DNA of 64,000 nucleotides from a phage: assembly GCA_021469345.1 (NCBI GenBank), contig GCA_021469345.1_3049.1; one strand, given 5' to 3'. Position 1 is the stretch's first letter. Each line of letters opens with the position of its first letter. Positions 23,890 through 31,913 of the stretch are shown here, one piece after another. The notes beneath the pieces are model-generated. The model was not told the DNA's origin. It saw only the letters and a program-made list of their open reading frames with translations, and ran no database searches. The position numbers and the translations under genes were made by a program.

Positions 23890-24904
23890 TAATTTAGGCC
23901 TGGGTATAAGGTGACTTATACTTGTAATCTATCTAAACGGGGGACCTCTCTAGTAGACAATCCCGTGCTAAATTGTAGGACTGCCCTTTAATAAATACTT
24001 CTATATAAAAGAGGTATTTATGAAAAGTGGAATTTATCAGATTAAAAACACTTTAAATGGTAAAGTGTATGTTGGAAGTGCTAAAGATTTTGAGAAAAGA
24101 TGGAAGAGACATTTTAAAGACCTTGAAAATGGTGTTCATTCTTCTATAAAATTTCAAAGGTCTTTTAATAAATACGGTAATGTTTTTGAATGCTCTATAC
24201 TGGAAGAAATTCCATATGAGAAAGATTTGATTATTGAACGAGAAAATTTTTGGATTAACGAGCTAAATTCTAAAATTAATGGATATAATATCGCCGATGC
24301 GTCCTTTGGTGATACATTTTCAAATCATCCATTAAAGGAAGAAATTGCTAAGAAACGAGCTGAAACGGTTAAAGCCAAGATGCTTAAGCTTGGATCTGAT
24401 GGTCGAAAAGCTATTTATGGTAAACACGGAAGTAAAAATGGTAGATGGAATCCGGAAAACCACAAGTTTTGTAAATGTGGTGTTCGTATACCAACTTCAG
24501 CCGACACCTGTGGAAAGTGTCGAAAACGTTCAGGTGAAAATAACCCGTTCTTTAATCATAGGCATTCAGAAAAAACTAAAACTAAACTATCAGAAAAGAT
24601 GAAAGGCAAAAAGCCATCTAACATCAAAAAGATTTCATGCGATGGGATTATTTTTGAATGTGCAGCCGATGCAGCTAGACATTTTGAAATTTCATCCGGA
24701 TTAGTTACTTACCGTGTAAAATCTGATAAGTGGAATTGGTTCTACATAAATGCCTAACGACTATCCCTTTAGGGAGTAGGGTCAAGTGACTCGAAACGAT
24801 AGACAACTTGCTTTAACAAGTTGGAGATATAGTCTGCTCTGCATGGCGACATGCAGCTGGATATAATTCCGGGATAAGATTAACGACCTTATCTGAACAT
24901 AATG
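23890..24904 (+). mobile_element. td group I self-splicing intron (1015 nt) with homing endonuclease ORF
   Basis: Starts TAATTTAGGCCTGGGTATAAGG..., ends ...CTGAACATAATG; exon 2 resumes LPFNIASYA. Confidence 0.85.
24020..24757 (+). CDS. I-TevI GIY-YIG homing endonuclease
   Basis: 245 aa; GIYQIKNTLNGKVYVGSA N-terminus and zinc finger CKCGVRIPTSADTCGKC. Confidence 0.9.
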   Translation: MKSGIYQIKNTLNGKVYVGSAKDFEKRWKRHFKDLENGVHSSIKFQRSFNKYGNVFECSILEEIPYEKDLIIERENFWINELNSKINGYNIADASFGDTFSNHPLKEEIAKKRAETVKAKMLKLGSDGRKAIYGKHGSKNGRWNPENHKFCKCGVRIPTSADTCGKCRKRSGENNPFFNHRHSEKTKTKLSEKMKGKKPSNIKKISCDGIIFECAADAARHFEISSGLVTYRVKSDKWNWFYINA

Positions 24905-25216
24905 CTACCGTTCAACATTGCATCATATGCTGCGTTAGTTCATATTGTAGCTAAGATGTGTAATCTTATTCCAGGAGATTTGATATTTTCCGGTGGTAAT
25001 ACTCATATCTATATGAATCATGTCGAACAATGTAAAGAAATTTTGCGTCGTGAACCTAAAGAGCTTTGTGAACTGGTAATAGGCGGATTGCCTTATAAAT
25101 TCCGTTATCTTTCTACTAAAGAACAATTGGAATATGTTCTTAAACTCAGGCCTAAAGATTTCGTTCTCAAAGATTATCAGTCCCACGGTGTTTTGAAAGG
25201 AAAAATGGCGGTGTAA
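24905..25216 (+). CDS. td: thymidylate synthase, exon 2
   Basis: 103 codons; joined product is 286 aa. Confidence 0.9.
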
Positions 25217-25500: not shown

Positions 25501-25780
25501 ATATAAATCCGACTTTGATGTTAATATTCACCGTGGTACATTTTGGGGAAATTACGTCGGTAAAGATGCTGGCAGCCGGGAGGCTGCCATTGAATTATTC
25601 AAAAAAGATTTTATACGTCGAATTAAATCTGGAGAAATAACTAAAGCACATTTAGAGCCTTTACGTGGAATGAGGCTAGGATGCACATGTAAACCAAAGC
25701 CGTGTCATGGTGATATAATAGCTCATATAGTTAACCGATTGTTTAAAGACGATTTTCAAGTTGAGGACTTATGCAATTAA
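25454..25780 (+). CDS. hypothetical Cys/His-motif protein (108 aa; [13 protein letters not shown])
   Basis: ORF track; overlaps the preceding ORF by 47 nt in another frame. Confidence 0.45.
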
Positions 25781-28035
25781 TTAATGTTATCAAAAGTAGT
25801 GGTGTTTCTCAGAGCTTTGACCCGCAAAAAATTATTAAAGTTTTATCTTGGGCAGCTGAAGGAACATCAGTCGATCCTTATGAATTATATGAAAATATTA
25901 AATCTTATCTCCGTGATGGAATGACAACTGATGATATTCAGACTATTGTCATTAAGGCTGCTGCGAATTCTATTTCAGTTGAAGAGCCTGATTATCAATA
26001 TGTAGCTGCACGTTGTTTAATGTTTGCTCTTCGTAAGCATGTTTACGGGCAGTATGAACCGCGTTCATTTATTGACCATATTTCTTACTGTGTAAATGAA
26101 GGTAAATACGACCCTGAATTATTGTCAAAATATTCAGCAGAAGAAATTACATTTTTAGAATCAAAAATTAAGCACGAACGGGATATGGAATTTACTTATT
26201 CCGGGGCGATGCAATTAAAAGAAAAATATCTAGTTAAAGATAAAACCACTGGTCAAATTTATGAAACTCCGCAGTTTGCATTTATGACTATTGGAATGGC
26301 ATTGCATCAAGATGAACCTGTTGATAGATTAAAACATGTTATTCGTTTTTATGAAGCAGTATCTACTCGACAGATTTCACTGCCAACTCCTATTATGGCT
26401 GGTTGTCGTACTCCGACTCGACAGTTTAGTTCATGCGTTGTTATTGAGGCAGGAGATTCATTGAAGTCTATCAATAAGGCTTCCGCTTCAATTGTTGAAT
26501 ATATCTCTAAACGCGCTGGAATTGGTATTAACGTTGGTATGATTCGTGCTGAAGGTTCTAAGATTGGCATGGGTGAAGTACGCCATACTGGTGTTATTCC
26601 TTTTTGGAAACATTTTCAGACTGCTGTTAAATCATGCTCACAGGGTGGAATTCGTGGCGGCGCTGCTACTGCTTATTATCCTATTTGGCATTTGGAAGTT
26701 GAAAATCTTCTCGTTTTGAAAAATAACAAAGGCGTAGAAGAAAACCGTATCCGTCATATGGATTATGGTGTTCAGCTGAATGACCTGATGATGGAACGTT
26801 TTGGAAAGAACGATTACATTACTTTGTTCAGTCCACACGAAATGGGTGGAGAGCTGTATTATTCTTATTTTAAAGACCAAGACCGTTTCCGTGAATTATA
26901 CGAAGCAGCAGAAAAAGACCCTAATATTCGTAAAAAGCGTATTAAAGCCCGTGAACTATTTGAATTGCTCATGACTGAACGTTCAGGAACAGCAAGGATT
27001 TATGTGCAGTTCATTGATAATACAAATAACTACACTCCGTTTATTCGTGAAAAGGCACCTATTCGTCAGAGTAACTTGTGTTGTGAAATTGCTATTCCAA
27101 CAAATGATGTGAATAGCCCTGATGCTGAAATTGGATTGTGTACCCTTAGCGCATTTGTGTTGGATAACTTCGATTGGCAAGACCAAGATAAAATTAATGA
27201 ATTGGCAGAAGTTCAAGTTCGTGCTCTTGATAATCTTTTGGATTACCAAGGATATCCAGTTCCTGAAGCAGAAAAAGCTAAAAAGCGTCGTAACCTCGGT
27301 GTAGGTGTTACTAACTATGCAGCTTGGCTGGCAAGTAACTTTGCTTCTTATGAAGATGCTAACGATTTAACACATGAACTATTTGAGAGATTACAGTATG
27401 GACTCATTAAAGCATCCATTAAGCTCGCCAAAGAAAAAGGACCTTGCGAATATTATTCAGACACTCGTTGGTCTCGAGGCGAATTACCTATCGACTGGTA
27501 CAATAAAAAGATTGACCAAATCGCAGCTCCAAAATACGTTTGTGACTGGTCGTCGCTGCGGGAAGACCTTAAGCTCTTTGGCATCCGTAATAGCACATTA
27601 TCAGCACTTATGCCATGTGAGTCATCTTCCCAAGTTTCTAACAGTACAAACGGTATCGAGCCTCCACGTGGACCAGTCTCTGTTAAAGAATCAAAAGAGG
27701 GCTCCTTTAATCAAGTCGTGCCCAATATTGAGCATAACATAGACCTCTATGATTATACATGGAAATTAGCTAAGAAAGGTAATAAACCTTATCTTACGCA
27801 GGTAGCTATTATGCTGAAATGGGTATGTCAATCAGCTTCAGCGAATACATACTATGACCCACAGATTTTTCCAAAAGGAAAGGTTCCAATGTCAATAATG
27901 ATTGATGACCTTTTGTATTTTTGGTATTTTGGCGGAAAAAATTTCTATTATCATAATACCCGTGATGGTTCTGGTACTGATGATTATGAAATAGAAACTC
28001 CAAAAGCTGAAGATTGTTCATCCTGTAAATTATGA
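25771..28035 (+). CDS. nrdA: ribonucleotide reductase large subunit
   Basis: 754 aa; N-terminal ATP-cone; length equals T4 NrdA. Confidence 0.95.
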   Translation: MQLINVIKSSGVSQSFDPQKIIKVLSWAAEGTSVDPYELYENIKSYLRDGMTTDDIQTIVIKAAANSISVEEPDYQYVAARCLMFALRKHVYGQYEPRSFIDHISYCVNEGKYDPELLSKYSAEEITFLESKIKHERDMEFTYSGAMQLKEKYLVKDKTTGQIYETPQFAFMTIGMALHQDEPVDRLKHVIRFYEAVSTRQISLPTPIMAGCRTPTRQFSSCVVIEAGDSLKSINKASASIVEYISKRAGIGINVGMIRAEGSKIGMGEVRHTGVIPFWKHFQTAVKSCSQGGIRGGAATAYYPIWHLEVENLLVLKNNKGVEENRIRHMDYGVQLNDLMMERFGKNDYITLFSPHEMGGELYYSYFKDQDRFRELYEAAEKDPNIRKKRIKARELFELLMTERSGTARIYVQFIDNTNNYTPFIREKAPIRQSNLCCEIAIPTNDVNSPDAEIGLCTLSAFVLDNFDWQDQDKINELAEVQVRALDNLLDYQGYPVPEAEKAKKRRNLGVGVTNYAAWLASNFASYEDANDLTHELFERLQYGLIKASIKLAKEKGPCEYYSDTRWSRGELPIDWYNKKIDQIAAPKYVCDWSSLREDLKLFGIRNSTLSALMPCESSSQVSNSTNGIEPPRGPVSVKESKEGSFNQVVPNIEHNIDLYDYTWKLAKKGNKPYLTQVAIMLKWVCQSASANTYYDPQIFPKGKVPMSIMIDDLLYFWYFGGKNFYYHNTRDGSGTDDYEIETPKAEDCSSCKL

Positions 28036-28051
28036 TATAATTACCACAAGG

Positions 28052-29644
28052 ATGTGGTTAACTAAGAATAACGCTATGTTTGATAATATATACAAAAACG
28101 GAAAGTTTCTTCCATTTGGAGAAGAAAAACTTAAATCTAGACTAACAGAAGAAGATAAAGCTCTTCTAACTGATGGAATAGATTTTAAGCTCAATGTGTT
28201 TCAAATTATGGAAGGCATTGACATTAACGATCTAAAATGTGCAGTTTGTGGAAATTTCATTTCTCTGAAAACAGCAAAGAAACGTGTATTTCCAGCAACA
28301 TGTAGTAAATCCTGCTCAGGGATATTTTTCGCGGATAAGAGAATTCAAAGCCGTGATACAAATTTTGGCGGAAAAGAAAAATATAAAAAATATTTGTCTG
28401 AACTTCAACACAAAAATTCTTTAGAAAAATATGGAACAACTCATCAAAAAATTTCAAGAAATAAAAATAGAAAAACTTTAATTGAACGATATGGGGTAAC
28501 GCATAATTCACAATTAGAAAGTGTGAAAGAAGCGAGAAAAGTTATAGAAAACGGTAAATCAGTTGATATTCTGCATTCTAAAAAATCTCGCGAAAAATCT
28601 AAGAAGACTAAATTAAATTGGACTGAAGAATATAAGGCATCGTTATATTCATCTATAGGAAAATCTATTAAAAATAACGGTCATATTAATCATGATATAC
28701 TAGATAAAATCAATTACAAAATTTCTATAGAAGAACTACAACAATTAGCAAATTGTTCTCGGATGACGGCTTATAGAGCTCTTTCATCCAAAGGACTAAT
28801 TGACGTTCATTATACTCAAAGTTCTATAGAGCAATTCATTTTAGATCTAGGATTTGATTGCGTAGAAACTAGAAAAATTATTCCTCCGTATGAATTAGAT
28901 ATTTACATTCCTGAGAAAAAATTGGCTATAGAATACGATGGAATTTATTGGCATTCTAGCGGGTCAAAGGAAACAGATAAAATTAAAGAAACTTATCATT
29001 TGATGAAGACAGAGATGTGTGAAGCACAAGGAATTCAATTACTTCACATCTTCGAAAATGAATGGATTGATGATACAAAAAGAGAGATCTGGAAATCCAT
29101 TATAAAGCATAAATTAGGATTATCAGAAAGAATACCAGCCCGAAAATGCAAAGCGCGTTTTGTTAATAAGGATGAGGCAAAAGAATTTATTAATAAGAAT
29201 CATCTTCAAGGATTTTGCTCGGGAGCTCATACGTATAAAGGACTTTATTACAATAATGAGTTAGTTCAAATTATTTCTATCGGTAAATCTAGATATAGCA
29301 CAGGTGATGAACTTTTAAGGATGTGTTCAAAATTGGGGGTTTGTGTTGTAGGAGGAGCCTCAAAATTATTAAAAGGAATTAATTGTCTATCTTATGGCAA
29401 TCGAAGATGGTGCAGTACATTATCAAATGTTTATGACTCTGTCATGGAATTTAGTCATATCTCTGAGCCATGTTATTGGTACGTCGATAAAGGAGAGGTA
29501 TTTCACCGCTCAAGCTATATGAAACATAAGCTTAAAAACAAGCTTAAAAATTATGATGATACAATAACTGAAGTAGAAAATTGTTATGCAAATGGTCTTA
29601 GAAGAATCTGGGACTGTGGAAATTTAGTTTACAGGACAAAATAA
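28052..29644 (+). CDS. 530-aa putative freestanding homing-endonuclease-like protein (zinc ribbon + Vsr/DUF559-like nuclease motif)
   Basis: CAVCGNF...CSKSC ribbon, repeated YG(T/V)THxxQ motifs, and YELDIYIPEKKLAIEYDGIYWH; sits where T4 carries mobE. Confidence 0.5.
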   Translation: MWLTKNNAMFDNIYKNGKFLPFGEEKLKSRLTEEDKALLTDGIDFKLNVFQIMEGIDINDLKCAVCGNFISLKTAKKRVFPATCSKSCSGIFFADKRIQSRDTNFGGKEKYKKYLSELQHKNSLEKYGTTHQKISRNKNRKTLIERYGVTHNSQLESVKEARKVIENGKSVDILHSKKSREKSKKTKLNWTEEYKASLYSSIGKSIKNNGHINHDILDKINYKISIEELQQLANCSRMTAYRALSSKGLIDVHYTQSSIEQFILDLGFDCVETRKIIPPYELDIYIPEKKLAIEYDGIYWHSSGSKETDKIKETYHLMKTEMCEAQGIQLLHIFENEWIDDTKREIWKSIIKHKLGLSERIPARKCKARFVNKDEAKEFINKNHLQGFCSGAHTYKGLYYNNELVQIISIGKSRYSTGDELLRMCSKLGVCVVGGASKLLKGINCLSYGNRRWCSTLSNVYDSVMEFSHISEPCYWYVDKGEVFHRSSYMKHKLKNKLKNYDDTITEVENCYANGLRRIWDCGNLVYRTK

Positions 29645-30319
29645 TGAGTACAGTTTTTAATACTAAACAGGTTGATGTTTTAACAGAACCCATGTTTTTT
29701 GGGTCTGGTCTTGGAATTGCGCGTTATGATATTCAACGACATAGGGTATTTGAAGAACTTATTGAACGTCAGCTCTCGTTTTTCTGGCGTCCTGAAGAAG
29801 TAAACTTGATGATGGATGCTACTCAATTTAATAAGCTTCCTCAGTATCAACAAAATATTTTTACTAATAATCTGAAGTATCAATCATTACTTGATAGTAT
29901 TCAAGGACGTGCGCCGTCTGCTGTACTTATGCCATTGCTTTCAGACCCAAGCCTTGATACATGGGTTGCTACGTGGACTTTTAGTGAAACTATTCACAGC
30001 CGTTCATATACACATATCATGCGAAATCTTTATACTGATCCATCGAAGGTATTTGATGAGATTGTATTAGATGAAGCTATTATGAAACGTGCTGAATCCA
30101 TTGGACGTTATTATGATGATGTTCTGATTAAAACCCGTGAATGGGAAAATGCTAAAGAATTTGTAGAACTAGCTAAAGAATCTCCTGATGCTGATTTTCG
30201 TTTAAACCGAGCTATTAAACAAGAAGCCGAAGCTAAACGTGCTTTAATGAAGTCTCTTTATCTCTGTTTGCACGTTATTAATGCCTTAGAAGCTATTCGT
30301 TTTTATGTATCTTTTGCGT
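29644..30319 (+). CDS. nrdB: ribonucleotide reductase small subunit, exon 1 (splice site inferred)
   Basis: Ends ...EAIRFYVSFA plus T; the in-frame stop begins the intron. Confidence 0.8.
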
Positions 30320-30402
30320 AAAATGCGCCTTTAAACGGTAACGTTTATCGAAAACTCCTTTAATTGCTGGAAAGTCCTTTATAGGAAAACTAGCAGCCAA
30401 GG

Positions 30403-30437
30403 TTTTGCTTGCACCTTTAATTAGTATAATATAAATA
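30403..30437 (+). promoter_or_regulatory. intron-internal promoters for I-TevIII: MotA-box-like TTTGCTTG + TATAAT, then late TATAAATA (30430-30437)
   Basis: TGCTT 14 nt upstream of TATAAT; exact TATAAATA overlapping it. Confidence 0.5.
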
Positions 30438-30464
30438 TGATTATACTTTTAAGAGGATGCACAA

Positions 30465-31274
30465 TTGAACTATAGAAAAATTTGGATAGATGCTAACGGA
30501 CCTATACCTAAAGATTCTGATGGAAGAACATACGAAATCCATCATAAAGACGGTAACCGTGAAAATAATGATTTAGATAATTTGATGTGCCTTTCTATAC
30601 AGGAACATTATGATATACATTTAGCTCAAAAAGATTACCAGGCTTGTCATGCTATAAAGCTTAGAATGAAATATTCTCCTGAAGAAATTTCTGAATTAGC
30701 TTCTAAAGCCGCAAAATCTAGAGAAATCCAGATTTTTAATATCCCTGAAGTACGAGCTAAAAACATTGCCTCTATTAAATCTAAGATAGAAAATGGTACA
30801 TTTCATCTTTTAGACGGTGAAATACAGCGTAAATCTAATTTAAATAGAGTTGCATTAGGTATACATAATTTTCAACAAGCTGAGCATATTGCAAAAGTTA
30901 AAGAACGCAATATTGCAGCTATAAAAGAAGGTACTCATGTATTTTGCGGTGGTAAAATGCAGTCAGAAACTCAATCAAAACGGGTAAATGACGGTTCACA
31001 TCATTTCTTGTCAGAAGACCATAAGAAAAGAACATCAGCAAAAACATTAGAAATGGTTAAGAACGGGACCCATCCTGCACAAAAAGAAATCACATGTGAT
31101 TTCTGCGGTCACATTGGTAAAGGTCCTGGATTTTATCTAAAACATAATGACAGATGTAAATTAAATCCAAATAGAATTCAATTGAATTGTCCATATTGTG
31201 ATAAGAAAGATTTATCACCATCAACATATAAACGATGGCACGGCGACAATTGCAAAGCAAGGTTCAACGACTAG
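30465..31274 (+). CDS. I-TevIII-like H-N-H homing endonuclease, full length (269 aa)
   Basis: H-N-H-like YEIHHKDGNRENNDLDNLMCL and C-terminal CDFCGH...CPYCDKK zinc motifs; apparent TTG start after SD AAGAGGA. Confidence 0.75.
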   Translation: MNYRKIWIDANGPIPKDSDGRTYEIHHKDGNRENNDLDNLMCLSIQEHYDIHLAQKDYQACHAIKLRMKYSPEEISELASKAAKSREIQIFNIPEVRAKNIASIKSKIENGTFHLLDGEIQRKSNLNRVALGIHNFQQAEHIAKVKERNIAAIKEGTHVFCGGKMQSETQSKRVNDGSHHFLSEDHKKRTSAKTLEMVKNGTHPAQKEITCDFCGHIGKGPGFYLKHNDRCKLNPNRIQLNCPYCDKKDLSPSTYKRWHGDNCKARFND

Positions 31275-31410
31275 TCTTCGGACGTAGGGTCAAGCGACTC
31301 GAAATGGGGAGAATCCCTCTGGGATTGTGATATAGTCTGGTCTGCATAGTAATATGTAGCAGTTCATAAGAGAACGGGTTGAGAATTAGCGAGCTCAATC
31401 GAACATAACG

Positions 31411-31913
31411 GTACCTTTAACTTCCACAAGAATATGGAAATCATGGAAGGTAATGCCAAGATTATGAAGTTCATTGCACGTGATGAGCAGCTTCACCTTA
31501 AAGGCACCCAATATATTATTCGTCAGCTTCAATCCGGTACTGATGGTGATGAATGGGTTAAAATTGCTCAAGAGTGTGAACAAGAAGCAGTTGATATTTT
31601 CATGGAAGTTAACCGTCAAGAAAAAGATTGGGCAGTTCATTTATTTAAAGATGGTGATGTTCCTGGATTAAATACAAATAGCATGTGGAGCTTTATTGAT
31701 TACTTAACTGTATCTCGTATGAAACAGTGCGGTCTTCCATGCCCAATTACCGATGCTCCGGTTAAACATCCATATCCTTGGATTCGTGAATATCTTAATT
31801 CTGATAATGTTCAATCTGCGCCACAAGAAGTAGAACTGTCATCTTACCTTGTTGCACAGATTGATAATGATGTTGATGATAAAGTTATGATGAGTTTTAA
31901 AAAATATTTTTAA
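31411..31913 (+). CDS. nrdB: ribonucleotide reductase small subunit, exon 2
   Basis: ...MEIMEGNAKIMKFIARDEQLHLKGTQYII...; joined product about 392 aa. Confidence 0.8.

Follow-up and report, generated by a model that had tools for sequence, protein, structure and literature searches.

The hef homing endonuclease gene in the nrdA-nrdB gap of a T4-like phage: insertion site, linked nrdB variant, Vsr-like nuclease domain and Mom-family C-terminal domain

The window, i.e., the whole stretch of 64,000 nucleotides of phage DNA analyzed here (GenBank assembly GCA_021469345.1), carries an intact nrdA gene (25771..28035, 754 aa) followed by the first exon of nrdB (29644..30321). As described in the sequence-only reading of this DNA, the gap between the two is filled by an ORF of 530 aa on the plus strand (28052..29644), which begins with ATG in the ORF listing of the window. 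This ORF is very probably hef, a gene for a freestanding homing endonuclease originally reported from the T-even-like phage U5, and is called hef in the following. The TAA stop of hef and the ATG of nrdB overlap by one base (TAATG). A Shine-Dalgarno-like AGGA for nrdB can be read directly at 29633..29636 (+), within the last hef codons and 7 nt 5' of the nrdB ATG, and by its position the insert would thereby supply nrdB with a ribosome-binding site. The G+C content of the insert is 0.28-0.33, compared with 0.36-0.43 for nrdA.

Three kinds of hef start codon occur among GenBank entries, corresponding to window region 28010-28076. The start lies 42 nt (14 codons) upstream of 28052 in the entries of U5 and Lv5cm, at the equivalent of 28052 in those of N2 and Manna, and at the equivalent of 28076 in that of LH2. 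The upstream ATG used by the U5 entry is absent from the window. The true start is probably the ATG at 28076 (M9; 522 aa), eight codons downstream of the listed one, since M9 ("MFDNIYK") is the aligned N-terminus of nearly all close homologues and residues 1-5 of the structure model have a pLDDT below 50. The start codon of hef is thus probably mis-annotated in several GenBank entries.

Neither sigma-70-like promoters nor terminators scored above chance near hef, and no T4 late-promoter consensus (TATAAATA) adjoins the gene. Its expression would be explained most simply by read-through from nrdA. A 6-bp hairpin at 28043-28058 (ACCACA / UGUGGU, loop AGGA) would cover both an AGGA and the ATG of the listed ORF (28052). 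It is not unusual in energy (z -0.16), and carriers of hef show no variation in this region. Other endonuclease genes of T4 are known to have sequestered ribosome-binding sites.

Other endonuclease genes were found close to hef. The intron-like insert of nrdB (30322-31433) contains a full-length H-N-H ORF of I-TevIII type (30465-31274, 269 aa), and the late-promoter consensus TATAAATA occurs at 30430-30437, 28 nt upstream of it. I-TevIII is truncated ("defective") in T4, while phages N2 and ZCEC15 have no nrdB intron. On the other side of nrdA, a GIY-YIG ORF of I-TevI type (24020-24757, 245 aa) lies just upstream of an ORF resembling td exon 2 (24902-25216). Three different endonuclease genes are found within 8 kb of window sequence. 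A second hef-like gene was not detected in the window by tblastn.

The assignment to hef is carried by direct comparison. The window protein is identical to U5 Hef (GenBank ABI48935) at 530 of 530 positions, and the two genes differ by 1 nt in 1593. Among the PHROGs, the protein matched PHROG 3339, "homing endonuclease", with an E value of 5e-151. A megablast search of 50,697 phage records with this region as query yielded 758 T4-like records, 17 of which covered the whole query, among them AY262133 ("Bacteriophage U5 ... Hef (hef)"). The Pfam search with the window protein alone gave only sub-threshold matches and the NCBIfam search none, so that the class of the protein had to be determined from a family alignment of 87 homologues, a structure model and PHROGs. 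A PADLOC search for defence systems returned only a "homing endonuclease" model.

The presence of hef at this site is already known. The gene received its name in 2005, and the nuclease was assigned to a family in 2011. By its title, the paper of Sandegren, Nord and Sjoberg (2005, Nucleic Acids Res) describes the Hef homing endonuclease as replacing mobE. A freestanding homing endonuclease in place of mobE is also what had been proposed for the window ORF from its letters alone. Papers citing this work report that U5 Hef cleaves nrdB, and secondary citations describe site-specific cleavage of the hef-free allele and preferential inheritance in mixed infection. Taylor et al. (2011) placed the Hef-type enzymes of bacteriophages in the Vsr-like "EDxHD" family of homing endonucleases. 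In the U5 record, a short stretch at nrdB nt ~122-140 (about 1990-2010 of that record) diverges strongly from the window and from the other carriers; it seems to contain an indel, and the ungapped identity to the window over nrdB exon 1 is 76%.

The boundaries of the insert were defined by comparison with hef-free relatives. In the alignment with the hef-free phage AV119, homology extends through the nrdA TGA and a further 7 nt and resumes exactly from the nrdB ATG, which leaves 28043..29643 (+) as DNA found only in hef carriers. The insert replaces 44 of the 51 spacer bases of hef-free phages, the first 7 nt after the nrdA stop being common to both. The distance between the nrdA stop and the nrdB start is 1608 nt in six hef carriers, 51 nt in four hef-free phages with a short spacer and 696 nt in T4. 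The latter carries mobE at this position, as had been stated in the sequence-only reading, together with nrdB.1. The ORF is not conserved at this site in all relatives: the full hef insert was present in 17 of the 758 matching T4-like records, and the full T4 mobE/nrdB.1 segment in 20 records.

Among the six carriers, hef shows 1-10 differences in 1593 nt (99.4-99.9% identical) with 0-4 amino acid differences, and the ORF is intact in all of them. The nrdA genes of the carriers are 96.2-97.1% identical to that of the window, while that of the hef-free phage TadeuszReichstein is nearer to it with 98.0%. Because hef is far more alike among the carriers than its flanks, this points to a recent lateral spread of the gene among them. 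The carriers are mosaic in other respects, differing in intron content and in the splitting of nrdA. The nrdB of N2, a hef carrier, is without intron; the I-TevIII-type intron ORFs of Lv5cm, LH2 and Manna are short (annotated as "defective" in Lv5cm), and that of the window is full-length. In Manna and e11/2, a gene for a MobE-like endonuclease (1347-2057 of each locus) divides nrdA into two parts, and Manna has both this gene and hef. The signs of hef mobility are strong.

Several Hef-like genes located beside conserved genes have been described in other T4-related phages, with four in LIMEstone1. Three diverged Hef-family proteins (P0086, P0107, P0117) were found here on one contig of 305,307 bp, and two (P0082, P0111) on another of 203,348 bp, both of which are as large as jumbo phage genomes. 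Multiple diverged copies on one large contig would fit a multi-copy selfish gene family.

The nrdB gene of hef carriers differs consistently from that of hef-free phages in one short stretch close to the insert. Codons 7-9 (29664..29670, +) read ACT AAA CAG (T-K-Q) in the presence of hef and ACA AAT CCA (T-N-P) without it. The bases concerned, nrdB nt 21, 24, 26 and 27, are the only fixed hef-specific differences in the 678 nt of nrdB exon 1, and the 1000 nt at the end of nrdA contain none. Used as a 40-nt query, the carrier allele retrieved 16 records, all of them hef carriers, while the hef-free allele retrieved 407. The database-wide linkage between hef and nrdB nt 21-27 marks a candidate immunity or target position, and we infer that the variant may be a form of the Hef target that resists cleavage. 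Alternatively, the four bases may mark no more than the right edge of a co-converted cassette.

The domains of the protein were assigned from the alignment of 87 homologues and from an AlphaFold2 model built on it (mean pLDDT 94.5). The N-terminal half (residues ~1-250) is mainly helical in this model. The cysteine ribbon that had been noticed near the N-terminus is a zinc-ribbon-like motif of four residues, C63, C66, C84 and C88 (28238..28315, +), which are kept in 82-83 of the 87 homologues. It is presumed to belong to a DNA-binding N-terminal region and would bind zinc as well as DNA. The YG(T/V)TH motifs, likewise noticed before, form tandem 20-residue repeats of the DUF7487 type at residues ~118-154 (28403..28513, +) in a self-comparison of the protein. 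YGTTH occupies residues 127-131 and YGVTH residues 147-151, the two repeats being 20 residues apart, and the comparison of 120-133 with 140-153 gave a BLOSUM score of 38 over 14 residues. Y147 and G148 are present in 75 and 74 of the 87 homologues, respectively. Pfam DUF7487 was matched by 36 of the 87 family members, the window protein itself being sub-threshold.

Ahead of the nuclease domain, the model suggests, if weakly, a helix-turn-helix-like pair at residues ~222-246 (28715..28789, +), formed by helices 226-233 and 237-246. The Pfam match of the window protein to HTH_11 is weak (E 0.13), and an analogous putative helix-turn-helix has been described for I-Bth0305I. In the wider family, many matches are confined to the C-terminal 48-59% of the query, with different domains at their N-termini (for example DUF723 or DUF4379). 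Such a variable N-terminal half is compatible with a role in target recognition.

A nuclease domain of Vsr/DUF559-like type, derived from PD-(D/E)xK, covers residues ~254-354 (28811..29113, +). The resemblance to Vsr and DUF559 that had been seen in the segment YELDIYIPEKKLAIEYDGIYWH was borne out by profile and structure searches, in which a nuclease fold was found. The model has structural matches to DUF559, I-Bth0305I and Vsr, and the family profile matches 3r3p with an E value of 1.3e-4. The Pfam families MTES_1575 and DUF559 were matched below threshold, and the PADLOC "HEase" model at E 5e-5. Within the segment, D283, A292 and H301 are invariant and E294 is present in 86 of the 87 homologues. 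D283, H301, H316 and K319 are invariant in the whole set (87/87), D283 and H301 being aligned with D196 and H213 of I-Bth0305I. The position of N208 is taken by D296 (Asn in 51 and Asp in 35 family members), and the last Asp of the motif aligns with the invariant H316 in the HMM alignment, while D309 is one residue off in the ungapped alignment. At the position of the first catalytic Glu, the window protein has Q256, where 76 of the 87 homologues have Glu.

This replacement of a Glu conserved in most of the family, together with the lack of a detected dedicated promoter near hef, would suit a decayed or domesticated remnant, which was once mobile but is now inactive as a nuclease and inherited vertically. 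We regard such a history as highly improbable. The intact ORF of the six carriers, with its 0-4 amino acid differences, and the invariant D283, H301, H316 and K319 speak against decay, while the much higher similarity of hef than of its flanks among carriers speaks against vertical inheritance. In addition, the identical U5 protein is named as an active homing endonuclease in the literature.

The under-described feature of Hef is the C-terminal third of the protein, which the sequence-only reading had passed over. Residues ~357-530 (29120..29641, +) form a GNAT-fold domain of the Mom family. The best solved structure in Foldseek was Mu Mom (8bv8) with an E value of 1.9e-6, while ordinary acetyltransferases gave values of 4e-3 or worse. 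A profile of the Hef C-terminal region matched a profile of 120 Mom relatives with E 4e-5 over 128 columns. The Pfam family Mom (PF25680) was not matched by the window protein at E values up to 1, so that its threshold was not reached; among the 87 homologues, 15 matched it at E values up to 0.001, and only one (P0061) scored above the gathering threshold (30.1 vs 27.1 bits).

The Mom residues described as important for activity are H58, Y59, R111, S124, D149, R151 and Y159. Four of these have identical counterparts in Hef: H384 for H58 (85/87 homologues), R423 for R111 (86/87), R452 for R151 (87/87) and Y461 for Y159 (86/87). Y59 corresponds to L385, with Leu in 85 of 87, and D149 to N450, with Asn in 77 and Asp in 10. 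S124 falls into an alignment gap in Hef, and no counterpart was confidently aligned by pairwise BLASTP, by hhalign with Mom alone or with the Mom family profile, or by an HMM of Mom relatives. The first turn of helix alpha-3, in which the Ser of Mom is described, contains the invariant S437. As judged from these alignments, the Mom-like domain of Hef appears strongly constrained at Mom active-site positions, yet it is no typical Mom. We know of no DNA modification activity for Hef.

The nuclease and Mom-like domains co-occur in all 87 homologues. Jumbo phages have been noted to encode Mom fused to restriction-type nucleases (Iyer et al., 2021). Several Hef relatives are located on contigs of 200-317 kb, and these may represent the Mom-REase fusion family of Iyer et al. 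The mechanism of Mom has since been solved, with glycyl-tRNA as the donor (Nat Commun 2026), which makes DNA modification by Hef a practical question. In the literature searched, no paper was found that connects Hef with Mom (both "Hef-like" and "Mom").

The Mom-like domain could contribute to Hef by binding the target, flipping bases, mediating dimerisation or genuinely modifying DNA. Handling of DNA, such as target binding or base flipping, is favoured here over a modification activity. That the domain actively modifies DNA, perhaps in dependence on aminoacyl-tRNA as in Mu Mom, and couples cutting with the chemical marking of adenines, is rather doubtful in our view. If this were true, the target site of the carrier itself could be protected by adenine marking, or the base targeted in recognition could be marked or flipped. 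Hef would then combine homing with a modification activity in one protein, a type of homing endonuclease that is not known to have been described before, and some T4-like phages would carry a so far undetected adenine adduct.

The same two domains could be understood as a single-chain weapon resembling a restriction-modification system, in which the Mom domain modifies adenines in the phage's own DNA and the nuclease turns on host or competing-phage DNA that lacks the modification. A Mom-family fold is indeed present and always accompanied by the nuclease in the 87 homologues, 85-87 of these retain counterparts of Mom H58, E108, R111, R151 and Y159, with S437 invariant, and Iyer et al. predicted such a function for the Mom-REase fusions of jumbo phages. 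The replacement of D149 by Asn (77/87) and of Y59 by Leu (85/87) argues in the other direction, as does I-Bth0305I, which homes without a Mom-like domain. The distribution of hef follows the pattern of a homing element, the gene being either present or absent at a single intergenic site, nearly identical in otherwise diverged genomic backgrounds and linked to a variant of the neighbouring gene, while several diverged Hef-like copies per genome beside conserved genes would be unusual for restriction-modification. Together with the site-specific cleavage of nrdB reported in the citing papers, this makes a weapon of that kind very unlikely, and homing remains the preferred explanation of the locus.

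Under the homing model, the N-terminal region of Hef with its zinc ribbon, DUF7487 repeats and helix-turn-helix would bind DNA in a mixed infection with a hef-free T4-like phage, and the Vsr-like domain would cut the hef-free genome at or near the nrdB start. Recombinational repair templated by the hef-carrying genome would then copy hef and a short flank into the gap between nrdA and nrdB. The four differences in nrdB codons 7-9 are probably what spares the carrier genome from being cut. Harm to the host phage would be little, given the intergenic site, the stop codon overlapping the nrdB start and the supplied ribosome-binding site of nrdB. The C-terminal Mom-family domain is an integral and conserved part of the enzyme. 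While the identity to Hef, the two folds, the insert boundaries, the sporadic distribution and the linked nrdB variant come directly from the comparisons made here, the parts proposed for the N-terminal modules, for the nrdB variant in immunity and for the Mom-like domain are those that we infer.

Four known systems can be compared with the gene in the window. The closest is U5 Hef, with the same position between nrdA and nrdB, the same 1608-nt spacing and the same 530-aa protein. The window is nevertheless not simply the U5 record, because the flanking nrdA and nrdB differ between the two at several positions. T4 MobE occupies the same gap and is also reported to cleave nrdB, but it is an unrelated protein of 141 aa with an H-N-H fold, accompanied by nrdB.1 in a spacer of 696 nt as opposed to 1608 nt. 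I-Bth0305I (PDB 3R3P), the "EDxHD" prototype, is intron-encoded and has 266 aa, the nuclease domain being its C-terminal part, whereas Hef is freestanding and twice as long. Unlike I-Bth0305I, Hef has a zinc ribbon and DUF7487 repeats in its N-terminal region, a Gln in place of the first Glu of the motif and an extra Mom-family domain. Mu Mom (PDB 8BV8), finally, is a tRNA-dependent DNA adenine-modifying GNAT enzyme to which the C-terminal domain of Hef is ~16-20% identical; unlike in Mu Mom, this domain is fused to a nuclease in Hef.
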